Shown: positions 1 through 64,000 of the stretch, piece by piece
Position numbering within the stretch: position 1 is the stretch's first letter
How the letters are laid out: each line of letters opens with the position of its first letter
Source of the DNA: Deltaproteobacteria bacterium
Lineage (GTDB): Bacteria > Desulfobacterota > GWC2-55-46 > UBA9637 > GWC2-42-11
Direction: 5' to 3'
Assembly (NCBI GenBank): GCA_016223005.1
Contig: JACRPW010000044.1
Span: 627-64,626 of the forward strand
DNA length: 64,000 nucleotides
The notes under the pieces: model-generated
Seen by the model: only the letters and a program-made list of their open reading frames with translations
Database searches by the model: none
Told to the model about the DNA's origin: nothing
Translations under genes and position numbers: made by a program

Positions 1-1310
1 GCCCTTTTCCTGATTTAGTACTTCAAACAAGCCCGACAACTCCACAGCATCATTGATTTTGAATTGCTCTTCGCGTTTTTTATTGTATGATGCAATAGTT
101 TCACATACTTCCTTTAAATTTTTGTCTTTGCTCAACAAGCCATTTTGTATTCGGTCTTTTATATCGTGCCAGTTGGCAAAATACTTATCGGAAACTCTAT
201 CTACGGCAGCTTTCGACCAATAAATGTCGTCCCACTCTTCGGTTTGTTTCAGCCAGTCAATGAACCTGTAAATGGTTTGTACATCCTCCTTTGTTTATAC
301 AGCGTCTTGAAAGGCAGAAGTTTTCTGAAATCCTTTTCAACCCTTCGTGCCTGATTGTACAGGTTAATAAGTAAGTTATAATGCCCGATAATCCGATTGT
401 ATTCCTCTATTCCCGATTGCGACAAACACTCTGAAAATCTGGCAATTTCAAACATCTTCTCCTCAATGGGAGATGCTTCTATCATTTTATTTGTTTCGGC
501 ATCCTTTATATGTGTTGTTCTGTTGGCATCTTTCAAATATTGGTAGGCATTCAGGTACTCGTCTTTTCGTGAAAAAGTTACTTTCGCATTATCCTGTGAT
601 TTCTTCTTTTTCTTTTGAACTTTCCCCTCCAAAAACTGAATGCAGTTATCACAAAACTTGGGTAAGTTATCGTGTATAATCCGCGTAGCAACAGCAGTCG
701 CTTTTTCTTCTTTTTTATAGTAATTTTCCCTGTTTTGGTTGTAACCGGAGAAATAGGTGAAGAATTTTTCAAATGTTTTTAAGTGCGTTTCTAATTCCTT
801 TCTCTCGTTCTCATCATCTGTTAACTTCCTAATATTGTTTTTGATATACTTCAATATTCCTGCTTCGGTCAAACATTTGACGCCCTCTTTTTTTAAAACT
901 GGTTTTCCCTTATTGTCTTCTCCCGCCTTTTCTTTTAAAGGTTGTGTTCCAACATCGAAGGTTTTAACAACGGCTTCCCGAAGCGATTTTTCTTCTGAAG
1001 TAATCGTATTTTCTTTTTCCTTCTTCAGTTTGTATTTCTCAAAATATTTAGAGAAATCGATTTGTTTAGCTTCATCAGAAGTCAAGCTTCTGTTGATTAC
1101 CTGCTCGTGTATATGGTCCATAACAGGTTTCAGGGCTATGTACGCATCTTTTATTTTCCTGTCGTTTTCAAGGATATTTCCAAGCAATCTTGCCGCATCT
1201 TCTGCTGCAAGTGGTTTCCCATCTTTTCCGATAGGTTTCAGTTCAAACCTCAGCGTTTTGGAAATCTGGTATTTATTTGTAAACTTCTCAAAGATTGATT
1301 CATTTTCCAT
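1..1310 (-). CDS. cas12a: Cas12a (Cpf1) type V-A CRISPR effector, N-terminal ~435 codons only. The gene continues beyond the window start. There is an apparent -1 frameshift in an A-run near 294 (the listed ORF 249..1310 stops at 249 while a second frame continues open to position 1).
   Basis: The N-terminus MENESIFEKFTNKYQISKTLRFELKPIGKD matches the conserved Cas12a start (xEKFTNxYxLSKTLRFxxIPxGKT). FEKFFTYFSGYNQNRENYYKKEEKATAVATRIIHDNLPKF matches the Cas12a REC1 block (FxxFTTYFxGFxxNRxNxFSxExxSTxIxxRxIxxNLPKF). LYNQARRVEKDFRKLLPFKTLYKQ matches LYNQKxKxKLPKFKPLYKQ. The downstream frame reads FIDWLKQTEEWDDIYWSKAAVDRVSDKYF, consistent with continuation of Cas12a. An AAGGAGG ribosome-binding site lies 9 nt upstream of the ATG at 1310. 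Confidence 0.85.
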
Positions 1311-1373
1311 AGATTGTGTCCTCCTTATAAATGCGTTCTAATCAAAAATCCTCTCAAGTCGAACGAATAAATA

Positions 1374-1542
1374 AAAATAAGGGTTCATTCGTAAACCCCG
1401 CACCCCGCCCACAGGGCGGGGCCTTTTGGGTGCGGGGTAAAAAAGTTGAAATGTCAGGAAGGGGTGAGTGAAGTAGGTTGGGTTAGTTTTATCAACCCAA
1501 CCTTTGCAATAAACCATTGGATTTAGCGCTGCTCAACCCAAC
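1374..1542. repeat. Copy A of a ~170-nt structured direct repeat. It contains nested GC hairpins (ccccgcacc..ggtgcgggg enclosing cgccc-acag-ggcgg followed by cctttt) and a ggttgggtt/aacccaacc hairpin.
   Basis: About 93% identical to 2186..2355 in the same orientation. The inverted repeats were read directly from the sequence. Confidence 0.9.
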
Positions 1543-1583
1543 CTACAACCTACAAACCAAGCCAAAACGGCTGAGCTTCCCGC

Positions 1584-1853
1584 TTATATCTGCTCATCAT
1601 GTGCAGATTTTTCCTGCTTTACCCTCTCATGCAGACAAACCTTTATCAACGCCCCGCGATCAACACCGATCGCTTCACGGATTGTGTCAATGTCGTTAAC
1701 CAGTGATTCCGCAACATCCAGTGTAAGTCGCACCTTTTTCCCATGACGTATAAGCTTTGCCTTAGACATGTCAATAATGTCATGGATATCTTCACTGGAG
1801 TCAAAGCGGCGATCAAATTCAGCGCTGCTTTTAGCCGTTTTTTTCGTTTTCAT
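1584..1853 (-). CDS. brnA: BrnA-like antitoxin (ribbon-helix-helix/CopG-type), partner of the DUF497 toxin
   Basis: 89 aa with a KVRLTLDVAESLV beta-strand/helix pattern. It lies immediately downstream of BrnT and overlaps it by ~23 nt (toxin-first BrnTA organisation). Confidence 0.6.
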   Translation of the reverse strand: MKTKKTAKSSAEFDRRFDSSEDIHDIIDMSKAKLIRHGKKVRLTLDVAESLVNDIDTIREAIGVDRGALIKVCLHERVKQEKSAHDEQI

Positions 1854-2151
1854 ATAGTTCTACCTCCTTTTTGTTTGCCCGTCTGACCGAAATGATACGG
1901 ATTGCTTCATTGCGGTTGGTGTAAATTGCGATCCATATCTTCTTTTGGAGCTTGCCGATCACGATCCATATCTTCTTTTGGAGCTTGCTGATCACGATCC
2001 ATCTGTCTTCTACGGGATGTGGCGCATGGATTTCAATGCGGTTTTCATCCAGCCACAACTCTTTTGCCGTATCAAAGTCGATGCCGTGTGTAGATTTGTT
2101 TGAACTGCTCTTGTCGGAATCCCATTCAAACTTCATGGTGTTATTATACAT
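1831..2151 (-). CDS. brnT: BrnT toxin (DUF497/COG2929 RelE-like ribonuclease toxin). The likely real start is the internal MKFEWD at 2136. It contains a 33-bp in-frame tandem duplication.
   Basis: MKFEWDSDKSSSNKSTHGIDFDTAKELW...RIISVRRANKKE is the typical DUF497 signature. The duplicated 11-aa block is WIVISKLQKKI/WIVIGKLQKKI. Confidence 0.75.
   Translation of the reverse strand: MYNNTMKFEWDSDKSSSNKSTHGIDFDTAKELWLDENRIEIHAPHPVEDRWIVISKLQKKIWIVIGKLQKKIWIAIYTNRNEAIRIISVRRANKKEVELYENEKNG
1931..1996. repeat. 33-nt tandem duplication (2 full units plus a partial third) inside brnT
   Basis: atccatatcttcttttggagcttgccgatcacg is repeated with one mismatch. It is in-frame (11 codons). Confidence 0.9.
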
Positions 2152-2170
2152 ATTTTGTCCAGATTTTCAA
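2142..2170 (-). promoter_or_regulatory. Candidate sigma70 promoter for brnTA: TTGAAA-17-TATAAT, with the -10 ending 6 nt before the MKFEW ATG (leaderless or very short leader)
   Basis: On the minus strand the hexamers TTGAAA (2165-2170) and TATAAT (2142-2147) are separated by a 17-nt spacer. No SD sequence lies between the -10 and the ATG. Confidence 0.5.
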
Positions 2171-2185
2171 CATTTACTTATTATG

Positions 2186-2355
2186 AAAATAAGGGTTCAT
2201 TCGTAAACCCCGCACCCCGCCCACAGGGCGGCCTTTTGGGTGCGGGGTAAAAAAGTTGAAATGTCAGGAAGGGGTGAGTGAAGTAGGTTGGGTTGGTTTT
2301 ATCAACCCAATCTATTCTGCAATAAACCGTTGGGTTTCGCGCTGCTCAACCCAAC
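2186..2355. repeat. Copy B of the ~170-nt structured direct repeat
   Basis: Aligns with 1374..1542 with a few substitutions and a 2-nt indel. Confidence 0.9.
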
Positions 2356-2388
2356 ATATAAACTAAAATACGAAAGACGAAGAATAAG

Positions 2389-3174
2389 TTACACCCGCCA
2401 GTTATACAGGTCAAAATCCGCATCAGGGACATGCTCTGCTATATACCCCCTCTTTGGCCACCTCTCCAGAGAGATTTCGTCTTTGACTATTGTGATAAAA
2501 AATCTGATTTCATCATTCGTTTTAAGACCAAGTGCATTAAACGGCACAGCAATCTCCACAACATCCTTCACTGCTATCTCTTTAATCTCTGCTTTTTTAG
2601 TCCACTGCCCATCCCTATACTTTTCAAATATGTATGCCCATTCAATAGAGGGTCCATTTATCTGTGCCTCTACCTTAGAGTTTTCTGTGGAAAAAATGTT
2701 TATTGCAAAACCCCATCTTATATCAGAAGGCATAATCCCGCTTATGAAATCAAATCTGAAAAAGAGGCAGTCAAGATTAAAGCCGTAGTTTATGGAACTT
2801 AGTATGCTGCTAGTATCTTTTTCCATGTGCATGGCGCTTCCACCCCATCCGATATCTATCTTACCTGAAGAAAGCCACTCAAAATAATCGGTTATCTCAC
2901 CGTCAATAACAGGCATTATAAAAGATGTCGGTCTCGCAGCAGGTTCACAAACCCTTTCTTCTGAGATAATCGGAATATCAAGATTTGTCGGCGGCTCTTT
3001 ACCTATGAGCATATAAAGTTTTTTAAGATGCTTCCTGAACAGTTCATCAAATTCAATGTCATTCATTGATGAGTGTTCTTCCCCATACCACCAGAACCAG
3101 TCGCTCCCCTCCGCTGTATATATCTCCTCCCATGCCTCTTTAAGTTTTGAGATACTATCTTCACTTAATTCCAT
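2389..3174 (-). CDS. Glycoside hydrolase family 57, C-terminal portion. Probably the 3' part of a single GH57 gene separated from 3212..4501 by a frameshift.
   Basis: Its reading frame stays open upstream to 3219. The upstream ORF stops at 3212-3214, so the two frames abut within ~6 nt, which is the signature of an indel. The gene context is GH57. Confidence 0.55.
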   Translation of the reverse strand: MELSEDSISKLKEAWEEIYTAEGSDWFWWYGEEHSSMNDIEFDELFRKHLKKLYMLIGKEPPTNLDIPIISEERVCEPAARPTSFIMPVIDGEITDYFEWLSSGKIDIGWGGSAMHMEKDTSSILSSINYGFNLDCLFFRFDFISGIMPSDIRWGFAINIFSTENSKVEAQINGPSIEWAYIFEKYRDGQWTKKAEIKEIAVKDVVEIAVPFNALGLKTNDEIRFFITIVKDEISLERWPKRGYIAEHVPDADFDLYNWRV

Positions 3175-3211
3175 ACCGCCCTTTTTTAAGTTATTTTCAA
3201 ACAGAACCAGT

Positions 3212-4501
3212 TCATTCGCCTATCGTCACACACTTTATCAAATTATTACTGCTTATTTTTGAATACAGGGCATTTAAAAAATCATTCCCATCATTTTTAT
3301 AATATTCCCATGCATTTTCACCATCCAGAACTATTGTGACAAGATGACCCTCTATCTCGCTGCCAAGGGATTCCCTGATGTATAACAACCTTTCAACAAG
3401 GTCATCTGCAGCCTTTCCTGCATCCCATTTTGAATAAACAAACCCGATTAAGTCAGAAAGTATGCGGTCCCTGAAGACCATCGCAATCTCATTACCACCC
3501 TTCAGCATCTTATATGGTTTATACAATATATGCGGGTCAAGACATCTGTTGTTATCATCCCTCCTTATATGTTTGCCTAAAGACTGCTCCAGTATCCTCT
3601 CATCAGTTGCAATCCAGTTAATACCATGTCTTGCTATTAAAGATACTGCATCTTCACTTACACCCCCTTCTGGAGGCCACATACCAGCAGGCTTCTTGCC
3701 AAAGACATTTTCATGGTATCTAATGCCCTTTGCTATCTGCTCCATTGCATCTTCAGGGTGGACGAATCTTGAATTTGGCAAAACCACCCACGGCATTGCA
3801 TCTCTGGCAGAGTCAGTATCGCATAAAAGCGGCAGTATCGGATGATAGTACGGAGAGGTTGACAGTTCAATAATACCCAAGTCCTGCATTTTCCTGTATT
3901 CATGGATTATGATTTTTAAAATATCATACTGCTTTTCTATAAGCCTTGATTTTTCATCTTCTGTAAAATACTGCCCTTTTTTTTCAAGTCCTTTAAGAAA
4001 GTCATCGTCATCACGAAGTAAAGGGTCTATCCACGCAAGATTGAAAAGAACCTGCAGGTCCAGAAAGTCCTGCACAGCATAGTAGCGTATGGCTTCAGAG
4101 AAATTGCCATTGTATGAATGCAGCCCCCTTTTTTTAAGCAATTCCCAGTATCTTGGAAACGGCATTATCATATTCTCCCAGTTGGCAAAGAAAAACTTAT
4201 CTAAGAGAAATCTCTTGTCATCCAAAGTCAATATATCCGCAGGTTTTGTTGTAACATCCAGAAATCTATCCTTTGCCCTGCCTTCTGTGTAGTCTATGAG
4301 CTGCTCTAAAAGGGACGGCACAATATTGACTGTCTGGTGGATACTGGGATACCTTTCAAGTATATGCACCATATCATAATAATCCTTTGTCCCATGCAGT
4401 CTGACCCACGGCAGGGGATACCTGCCATCTACAGGGTCTTTATATAACGGCTGGTGCATATGCCAGAGAAATGCCACATGAATGGGTGAGTTGTCTTTCA
4501 T
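3212..4501 (-). CDS. Glycoside hydrolase family 57 catalytic domain (alpha-amylase / 4-alpha-glucanotransferase / branching-enzyme family), N-terminal portion
   Basis: The N-terminus VAFLWHMHQPLYKD carries the GH57 HQP motif, in a (beta/alpha)-barrel-like context. Confidence 0.7.
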   Translation of the reverse strand: MKDNSPIHVAFLWHMHQPLYKDPVDGRYPLPWVRLHGTKDYYDMVHILERYPSIHQTVNIVPSLLEQLIDYTEGRAKDRFLDVTTKPADILTLDDKRFLLDKFFFANWENMIMPFPRYWELLKKRGLHSYNGNFSEAIRYYAVQDFLDLQVLFNLAWIDPLLRDDDDFLKGLEKKGQYFTEDEKSRLIEKQYDILKIIIHEYRKMQDLGIIELSTSPYYHPILPLLCDTDSARDAMPWVVLPNSRFVHPEDAMEQIAKGIRYHENVFGKKPAGMWPPEGGVSEDAVSLIARHGINWIATDERILEQSLGKHIRRDDNNRCLDPHILYKPYKMLKGGNEIAMVFRDRILSDLIGFVYSKWDAGKAADDLVERLLYIRESLGSEIEGHLVTIVLDGENAWEYYKNDGNDFLNALYSKISSNNLIKCVTIGE

Positions 4502-49403: not shown

Positions 49404-49479
49404 TGGAGCGGGCGACGGGATTCGAACCCGCGACCCCAACCTTGGCAAGGTTGTGCTCTACCAGCTGAGCTACACCCGC
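49404..49479 (-). tRNA. tRNA-Gly (anticodon GCC), CCA encoded
   Basis: The reverse complement folds as a cloverleaf: GCGGGUG acceptor, anticodon loop UUGCCAA, T-loop GGUUCGAAUCC. Confidence 0.9.
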
Positions 49480-56164: not shown

Positions 56165-56255
56165 GGAGAGATGTCCGAGCGGCCGAAGGAGCACGACTGG
56201 AAATCGTGTGTGCGCTAATACCGTACCGAGGGTTCAAATCCCTCTCTCTCCGCCA
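56165..56255 (+). tRNA. tRNA-Ser (anticodon GGA) with a long variable arm, CCA encoded
   Basis: GGAGAGA/TCTCTCC acceptor, anticodon loop CUGGAAA, T-arm GAGGGTTCAAATCCCTC. Confidence 0.9.
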
Positions 56256-56348: not shown

Positions 56349-56456
56349 TTGATAGCCGGGTCTTGCGCAGCGGTTAGGTTGCGAACCCCGCCAGGTCCGG
56401 AAGGAAGCAACGGCAGTAACTCTATTCCGGGTGCCGCAAGTCTGCCTGGCTATCAA
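56349..56456 (+). ncRNA. ffs: Signal recognition particle RNA (4.5S/ffs, small bacterial type)
   Basis: Conserved domain IV motif CCAGGUCCGGAAGGAAGCA. The terminal helix is gatagcc...ggctatc. It has the conserved position immediately upstream of dnaX. Confidence 0.85.
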
Positions 56457-62329: not shown

Positions 62330-62398
62330 GTTTCAGATAAGAAGGTTTTTTTAAGTCCCCAAAAATAGACATTGATTTTTGGGGAAAGTCAAATAACC

Positions 62399-63821: not shown

Positions 63822-64000
63822 ATCTGTATTATTTGAGTATTAGTTGAGTGTGTAATTTAGCATGGTAGTGTCGTATTGTCAATCAATTGGAAAACCACCC
63901 AAAAATAGACATTGATTTTTGGGGAAACCACTGTAATTTAAAAATTTATGCATATTTATGTTGACTAGGATTGTTAAAAGTTGTATTAAATAGTTGTTAA

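Follow-up and report, generated by a model that had tools for sequence, protein, structure and literature searches.

How a toxin-antitoxin (TA) gene pair comes to stand between two copies of a long direct repeat, directly upstream of a cas12a gene, is the question raised by one end of a 64,000-nt stretch of DNA from a Deltaproteobacteria bacterium (assembly GCA_016223005.1, contig JACRPW010000044.1), the whole of which is referred to here as the window. The pair is brnT and brnA, the repeat is termed R, and the arrangement R-brnTA-R is termed the bracket. The minus strand carries every gene in the first 6.5 kb, and the order of transcription is GH57 glycoside hydrolase gene (4501->2389), R copy B (2368->2183), brnT (2136->1831), brnA (1853->1584), R copy A (1555->1371), a 60-nt leader and cas12a. 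Our analysis indicates that cas12a, the brnTA cassette and the R copies are three separate things, adjacent at the edge of a normal housekeeping segment of the chromosome, and there is no evidence for a functional tie among them. All the components are of known kinds and mostly decaying. The bracket itself is read, with a confidence slightly better than even, as the scar of a recombinational insertion of the cassette at R, kept because the TA pair resists loop-out, and not as the sign of a partner of the clustered regularly interspaced short palindromic repeats (CRISPR) system. The features on which this reading depends are as follows.

1371..1555, minus strand: repeat R, copy A (repeat search, fold, covariance model at 237 bits)
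1556..2182, minus strand: mobile brnTA cassette of ~627 nt, with promoter, brnT, brnA and a short 3' hairpin (nucleotide identity to other loci)
2183..2368, minus strand: repeat R, copy B, with the same architecture as copy A (repeat search, fold, covariance model)

The two R copies (185-186 nt) are 91.5% identical over 188 aligned columns and differ by a 2-nt and a 3-nt indel; the initial annotation was right in seeing two flanking direct repeats and put their length at 170 nt and their identity at 93%, both of which had to be revised. Both copies abut the cassette with zero spacer, and copy B begins 20 nt past the GH57 stop codon. In the 64-kb window R is the only strong direct repeat with copies no more than 3 kb apart, and BLAST, nhmmer and a covariance model built from both copies returned these two copies only. 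The limits of the cassette were obtained from BLAST comparison of window positions 1300-2400 with loci fetched through BrnT homologues. Cassette homologues with 81-90% nucleotide identity over ~600-635 nt were found in L003-L007, L012 and L027-L031, and the homology never crosses window positions 1556 or 2188, where the R copies have their inner edges. The proposal that brnTA is a discrete inserted cassette is therefore borne out, its limits coinciding with the repeat edges. The cassette-bearing loci come from groundwater bacteria (Nitrospirota, Desulfuromonadales and 'Deltaproteobacteria' genomes, together with several anonymous assemblies), and the cassette has unrelated neighbours there, including vapBC (L003), a PemK fragment plus vapBC (L006/L007), an HTH gene (L005) and pnp (L028). 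A full R was found outside the window neither by BLAST and nhmmer over 25 other loci nor by the covariance model over 21, and for this reason R is not considered part of what travels. brnTA is thus a self-contained cassette that moves between distantly related groundwater bacteria.

A scan of metagenomes with a 23-mer from the cassette gave a single return, a brnT remnant between lon and rmuC. This remnant (L008, 7174-7522) comprises 199 nt with 84% identity to the window cassette, and a hairpin beside it, TGTAGGTCGGGTCAAGCGAAGCGGATCCGAC, resembles the first of the two repetitive extragenic palindromic (REP) units of R that are described below. When run over 207 kb, the covariance model of R gave one outside match, a partial one of 13.9 bits that covers one hairpin and lies beside the same remnant.

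The wider interest of the locus lies in the recurrence of such brackets, since several unrelated genomes have the same or a related brnTA pair enclosed by direct repeats that are specific to the locus. The cassette of L005, L006 and L007 stands within another direct repeat, 51-71 nt long with 90-96% identity and a spacing of 758 nt, which codes for the C-terminal part of a PIN protein; in its downstream copy the PIN C-terminus is longer, in frame and closed by the natural stop codon, and the duplication of the PIN fragment is older than the split between L005 and L006. More distant brnTA pairs also have locus-specific brackets, of 41 nt (REP-like) in L017, 49 nt in L019, 59 nt in L021 and 88 nt in L023, the repeats of L021 including a duplicated wecG 3' end around a TA island. 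In L020, mazEF, yefM-parE and brnTA cassettes form an array and are separated by repeats. Five contexts (the window, L005, L011, L017 and L019) have no strong direct repeat other than the bracket, or no other one at all, with copies up to 3 kb apart, and all repeat pairs spaced 600-1000 nt bracket brnTA. A literature search on TA cassettes flanked by direct repeats found nothing specific.

Two further observations were made at these loci. The TA arrays of Desulfobacteraceae and 'Deltaproteobacteria' genomes (L021, 1-6200; L020, 500-4300) have local repeat copies between their cassettes and hold two brnTA pairs, DUF4258/zinc-ribbon, mazEF and yefM-parE; in L021 an intact wecG lies at one end of the array and a duplicated 3' fragment of wecG at the other, with no integrase in view. 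In L013 (2127-3727), a chimeric open reading frame (ORF) with a Y1 (IS200-like) transposase domain has 124-nt direct repeats on each side (86% identical) and lies ~270 nt upstream of a brnTA pair.

According to the reading that we favour, brnTA would have entered by recombination at R, either through the single-crossover integration of a circle carrying R and the cassette or through an insertion that duplicated its target R. The outcome would be a GH57 gene terminated by copy B and a brnTA pair terminated by copy A, and the direct-repeat bracket would stay because its loop-out would delete a TA pair. This agrees with the established idea that TA cassettes stabilise repeat-rich arrays. A circle of one repeat plus the cassette, looping out and in, fits all of the bracket cases, although this is conjectural. 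Several points weigh against the account. The bracket is absent in two of the four close-family contexts with enough flank (L003/L004; L028/L029/L031). The downstream repeat copy of L006 has 90 extra in-frame PIN nucleotides, so that a plain target-site duplication from a staggered cut does not fit there, and the cassette ends vary by ~15 nt among contexts with no single precise mechanism evident, which argues against a precise site-specific system. A 33-nt duplication within brnT may have inactivated the toxin, in which case addiction would be a weaker argument for the persistence of the bracket today. The search for an empty site through the GH57 gene was negative: the nearest homologue outside this genome is 64% identical and is followed by a simple hairpin and no R. 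The searched collections hold no close host relative, and there was consequently no empty site for comparison by which R could be shown to be native to this spot. Finally, the copy number of R is that of 64 kb and not that of the genome.

A broader proposition, which we consider distinctly doubtful, is that small TA cassettes spread by an undescribed route that leaves 40-190-nt locus-specific direct repeats of the landing site. The candidate route would be repeated loop-out and loop-in of a circle with one repeat and the cassette, possibly helped by HUH/Y1 enzymes acting on hairpins and resembling RAYTs (REP-associated tyrosine transposases). Possible landing sites include REP/terminator blocks and the 3' ends of genes such as PIN or wecG, and the TA pair would protect an otherwise unstable duplication. 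If this were true, R-brnTA-R would exemplify a general cassette system that needs no integrase. Should the bracketing hold systematically, it would reveal how TA modules move without integrons or transposases and how they stabilise duplications otherwise lost. As it stands, the result is a correction of annotation to a cas12a pseudogene fragment, a hitch-hiking TA cassette and a REP-like terminator block.

The repeats are structured, as had been suggested: shuffling gave z-scores of -3.0 for the plus strand and -4.3 for the minus strand, and the two-sequence consensus fold has 47 predicted pairs, none of which is broken between the copies. The copies differ at three stem positions, each time by a GU<->GC exchange that keeps the pair on the minus strand only, and compensatory changes between the two were not found. 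Read on the minus strand, R comprises, in this order, GTAG and a GTTGGGTT...AATCCAAT hairpin, a 12-nt spacer, an inverted AGGTTGGGTT...AACCCAACCTAC hairpin, a C-rich linker, whose single-stranded stretch is CACCCCUUCCU, a GC hairpin of nested form, and lastly a small hairpin trailed by TATTTTTAT. The corresponding positions in copy A are ~1546->1473 for the REP doublet, 1438->1395 for the nested GC hairpin and 1399->1380 for the small hairpin with its T-tail. The two REP units have opposite orientations and face each other over the spacer; in copy A each consists of GTAG plus a GTTGGGTT...AACCCAAC palindrome (1473-1503, plus strand; 1546->~1516, minus strand), and copy B has the same units, but one of its GTAG tags is degenerate (ATAT). 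The motif GTAGGTTGGGTT does not occur beyond chance outside the R copies in the window. Terminator-like hairpins, assigned by consensus match only, are found on the minus strand at 1399->1380 (tail TATTTTTATT) and 2211->2192 (tail TATTTTCATA), and the region has seven terminator-like sites against 1.1 expected.

High genomic copy number is a defining feature of REPs; bacterial interspersed mosaic elements (BIMEs) are mosaics built from them, and REPINs are inverted REP doublets copied by RAYTs. GTAG-tagged REPs have been described (Di Nocera et al. 2013, PMC3733652) as short palindromes of 20-40 bp in which a GTAG tag at one of the ends stays unpaired; they are often inverted dimers, are located for the most part downstream of genes and are plausibly transcribed. 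Because its first part fits this description and its last part fits the terminator consensus, R is best read as a putative REP/BIME-type 3' untranslated region (UTR) and terminator block, of which the copies were counted within 64 kb only. Comparison with Rfam, which had been proposed as a check on the repeat, gave no match at gathering thresholds and no family match at E values up to 10; the best sub-threshold match, DUF3800-IX, scored 18.9 bits against a gathering score of 36.8 and reflects a generic GC hairpin only. Exact 21-26-mers of R were absent from viral contigs, an exact 24-mer was absent from the genome collection, and blastn against plasmids returned nothing.

The cassette carries the following features.

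2143..2170, minus strand (2170->2143): sigma-70-type brnT promoter, TTGAAA-16-TATAAT (11/12 consensus matches)
1831..2136, minus strand: brnT toxin gene, 101 aa from the ATG at 2136; the longest ORF starts at 2151 (PF04365)
1929..1994, minus strand: in-frame 33-nt tandem duplication in brnT, 11 extra residues in the central strands (repeat family D4)
1584..1853, minus strand: brnA antitoxin gene, 89 aa (NF047399, BrnA_antitoxin_add)

A toxin-first BrnT/BrnA pair had been proposed and was confirmed by both protein models. BrnT covers the full PF04365 profile (1-77; E 1.6e-23, 83.2 bits against a cut-off of 34.5) and matches the solved toxin structure 7vd7_A, and BrnA matches NF047399 (E 3.7e-18, 65.4 bits against a cut-off of 60); brnT comes first, brnA next, and the genes overlap by 23 nt. 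The promoter-like site ahead of the pair was likewise recovered, with a spacer of 16 nt in place of the 17 nt first given, and it is kept in all cassette copies. Since the first ATG (2151) and the -10 box overlap, and the box ends 6 nt ahead of the ATG at 2136 (MKFEWD), the latter is probably the true start of brnT and the mRNA is probably leaderless. The 33-nt duplication is missing from four aligned cassette copies (alignment A2, among them L003, L005 and L006), and among the 120 homologues listed none has the 106-aa length of the window BrnT. In the unduplicated sequence, two natural copies of the 8-nt repeat ATGGATCG flank the 33-nt unit, and replication slippage between them would produce such a duplication.

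For cas12a and its leader, four features were delimited.

1311..1370, minus strand: cas12a leader, 60 nt, with a strong ribosome-binding site AAGGAGGA (sequence)
249..1310, minus strand: cas12a 5' part, 353-aa ORF, identical to NCBI protein HZC45_05125 (P0001) (TIGR04330, PF18501)
288..294, minus strand: junction of a 164-nt internal deletion, with frameshift (comparison with L001)
1..290, minus strand: continuation of cas12a in a different frame (start of REC2), running off the window edge (weak PF21918 REC2 match; 85% nucleotide identity to L001 1742-1887)

The gene lies on the minus strand and runs past position 1, as the initial annotation had described, and it starts at ATG 1310. The ORF matches positions 1-294 of the 1288 of TIGR04330 (E 6.5e-44, 150 bits; the 300-bit full-length cut-off is not reached by what is a fragment only) and the PF18501 REC1 model at 109 bits against a cut-off of 37. 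An exhaustive HMMER search of 1.84 billion representative proteins gave 938 relatives; many of these are 1200-1477 aa long and are aligned at their N-termini, and the type V-A assignment therefore holds. A split Cas12a family was considered and rejected: all 71 of 71 word-indexed matches were no longer than 765 aa, but the many full-length proteins found by the exhaustive search show that the short-protein pattern is a search bias. What did not stand is the claim of ~435 continuous codons, as residues 1 to ~341 of the ORF are Cas12a WED/REC1 sequence and the final ~12 codons are out-of-frame read-through. The frame is lost after ...LPFKTLYKQ (~291), and Cas12a sequence resumes in another frame. 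L001 is the closest cas12a relative (88% nucleotide identity), and window 292-1286 corresponds to L001 1577-595 and window 145-290 to L001 1887-1742, leaving L001 1578-1741 without a counterpart. Because L001 has these 164 extra nucleotides and homologues P0002-P0004 have ~53 additional residues at the same point, the lesion is an internal deletion whose length is not divisible by three, and together with the frameshift it leaves the window cas12a without an intact ORF. The continuation is the partial protein HZC45_05120 (P0058, 253 aa), which extends up to the end of the source contig; this contig of 65,087 nt stops inside cas12a, ~0.6 kb past the window, at about codon 690. We conclude that the window cas12a is a decayed, horizontally acquired type V-A gene, now a pseudogene fragment.

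The relatives at 88% nucleotide identity (L001) and 40% amino acid identity (L026) carry RuvC, NUC, cas4-cas1-cas2 and an array of 36-nt repeats, in agreement with the V-A assignment, and the repeat of these arrays ends with AATTTCTACTATTGTAGAT. Cas12a-type repeats, recognised by the end ...TCTACT-N-GTAGAT, were found with up to 3 mismatches neither near brnT nor anywhere else in the window, and on this ground a crRNA-like regulator was rejected. The homology with L001 ends at window 1286, barely inside the cas12a coding start; a ParE toxin gene, and neither R nor brnTA, is present upstream of the L001 gene, and a WYL regulator, with no TA pair, upstream of that of L026. A Pfam search of the region upstream of L001 cas12a gave no Cas3-HD match, and a Cas3-HD fragment is not claimed. 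A promoter scan returned no promoter-like site between copy A and the cas12a start codon.

L001 and L026 cas12a are themselves each interrupted near codon 680, by different lesions and with intact cas4-cas1-cas2 following both. In L001 (~2545-2552) a poly-A frameshift gives ORFs of 676 and 669 aa, and in L026 (7344-7346) an in-frame TGA gives ORFs of 687 and 671 aa. As full-length relatives exist, this is not a general split, odd as the shared position is.

The upstream neighbour of the bracket is likewise damaged.

2389..4501, minus strand: GH57 glycoside hydrolase gene (PF03065)

It is broken into ORFs of 429 aa and 261 aa by the deletion of ~46 codons and a frameshift at ~3210; in tblastn with the homologue P0193, residues 2-124 align in one frame and 171-443 in another, and 125-170 are absent. 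The lesion is of the same kind as that of cas12a 3 kb away, and eight other genes checked are intact. Elsewhere in the window, two tRNA genes and a bacterial small signal recognition particle (SRP) RNA are present at 49407-49479 (minus strand), 56165-56252 (plus strand) and 56354-56454 (plus strand), ordinary housekeeping RNAs that confirm the chromosomal nature of the window. An exact 30-nt palindromic repeat, CCCAAAAATAGACATTGATTTTTGGGGAAA, occurs twice, at 62358-62387 directly upstream of a TTGACA...TACAAT promoter-like site before rpsU and at 63898-63927 directly upstream of a TTGAC hexamer at the window end, and may be a shared operator.

Insertion at R followed by retention through the TA pair has to be weighed against four other explanations, two of which concern the nature of R. 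R could be a dispersed REP/BIME-like (REPIN-type) family with many genomic copies, the bracket consisting of two members between which the cassette landed or is reshuffled, either through recombination or through the action of a RAYT on REP hairpins. We think this unlikely, while granting it some weight: the GTAG-tagged inverted palindromes fit the published description of REPs (PMC3733652), the bracket of L017 is also formed of REP-like hairpins, a repeat-flanked Y1 transposase fragment is present in L013, a weak match to the first REP hairpin lies beside the brnT remnant of L008, and the 8.5% divergence of the copies would be easily explained by different members. However, 64 kb hold two copies only, both of them touching the cassette, with no further GTAGGTTGGGTT motif beyond chance; the similarity spans all 185 nt, with the linker and the terminator that lie outside the REPs, at zero spacing to the cassette, and the brackets elsewhere are coding fragments and not REPs. 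R might instead be a duplicated gene for a structured RNA, either a small RNA or a cis-regulatory leader for the downstream brnT and cas12a. This we hold to be improbable. The fold of the minus strand is significant and the GU<->GC differences preserve its pairs, and R has a C-rich single-stranded stretch, CACCCCUUCCU, ahead of a terminator-like hairpin, as small RNAs typically do; against these stand the lack of an Rfam family, of a homologue in any collection or locus searched, of compensatory changes and of any promoter called upstream of either copy. Moreover, the position of copy B 20 nt past a stop codon suits a 3' UTR better than a separate gene, and brnT is served by a separate, conserved promoter that lies downstream of R.

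The other two explanations concern the neighbourhood and the assembly. That brnTA partners the CRISPR-Cas12a locus in addiction or regulation, as the initial annotation had suggested, is now scarcely credible. Such a partnership would account for the adjacency of brnTA and cas12a, and the closest cas12a relative (L001) also has a toxin gene directly upstream, though it is parE, and brnTA and R are both missing there. The window cas12a is frameshifted, so that nothing functional is left to guard, a terminator-like R copy separates it from brnTA, and no CRISPR-repeat-like sequence lies near brnT. The cassette also sits beside unrelated genes in at least five other contexts, none of them cas (vapBC, pnp and lon-rmuC are among the neighbours), and L026 cas12a is preceded by a WYL regulator and not by a TA pair. 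An artefact of metagenome assembly, responsible for the bracket, the deletions or both, is very improbable in our judgement. The source is a metagenome-assembled genome with three lesions within 3.2 kb near a contig end, and all of the lesions could in principle be assembly errors. The bracket itself is argued to be real by its diverged copies, which differ by 8.5% and two indels and hence are not one collapsed or re-used graph node, and by equivalent brackets in three independent assemblies of another lineage; the 33-nt duplication, for its part, lies between natural 8-nt repeats, as replication slippage gives.

Compared with known systems, the cas12a fragment resembles Cas12a (Cpf1, TIGR04330) in its N-terminal WED/REC1 sequence and differs in having a 164-nt deletion and a frameshift and in being cut by the contig end, with neither a RuvC or Nuc domain nor adaptation genes nor an array in view. 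The TA cassettes of chromosomal integrons, flanked by attC, and the brnTA dif modules of Acinetobacter plasmids, flanked by pdif, are thought to resist loss of their region. The locus resembles these modules in that similar structured sites enclose a small TA module that has a promoter of its own; unlike them, it belongs to a set of brnTA brackets whose sequences vary by locus and can be coding fragments, and the cassette ends are imprecise. The motifs of R stand in the order GTTGGGT...ACCCAAC, inside-out with respect to the RYYYAAC...GTTRRRY of integron attC. An attC site or a cluster of attC sites lacking an integron integrase (CALIN) was rejected on inspection, since both motifs are present but in that order on both strands, and a dif/Xer site was set aside when inspection by eye found no Xer-type 11-6-11 site.

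In comparison with the GTAG-tagged REP/BIME/REPIN elements, two R copies were seen in the 64 kb examined, the R unit is 185 nt long with a linker and terminator beyond the REP doublet, and no RAYT gene was identified among the window ORFs, which were scanned in part. R shares with these elements the short palindromes, the unpaired GTAG tag and the inverted pair, as well as a position directly downstream of a gene and between co-directional ORFs, where it is plausibly transcribed (PMC3733652). The window brnTA, for its part, departs from type II TA systems of the BrnT/BrnA kind (PF04365/NF047399) by the unique 11-residue in-frame duplication of its toxin and by a brnT mRNA that is probably leaderless, given that 6 nt separate the -10 box from the ATG. 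In its toxin-first order, overlapping genes, own promoter and matches at or above the cut-off of both models, it is like the other members of that family.

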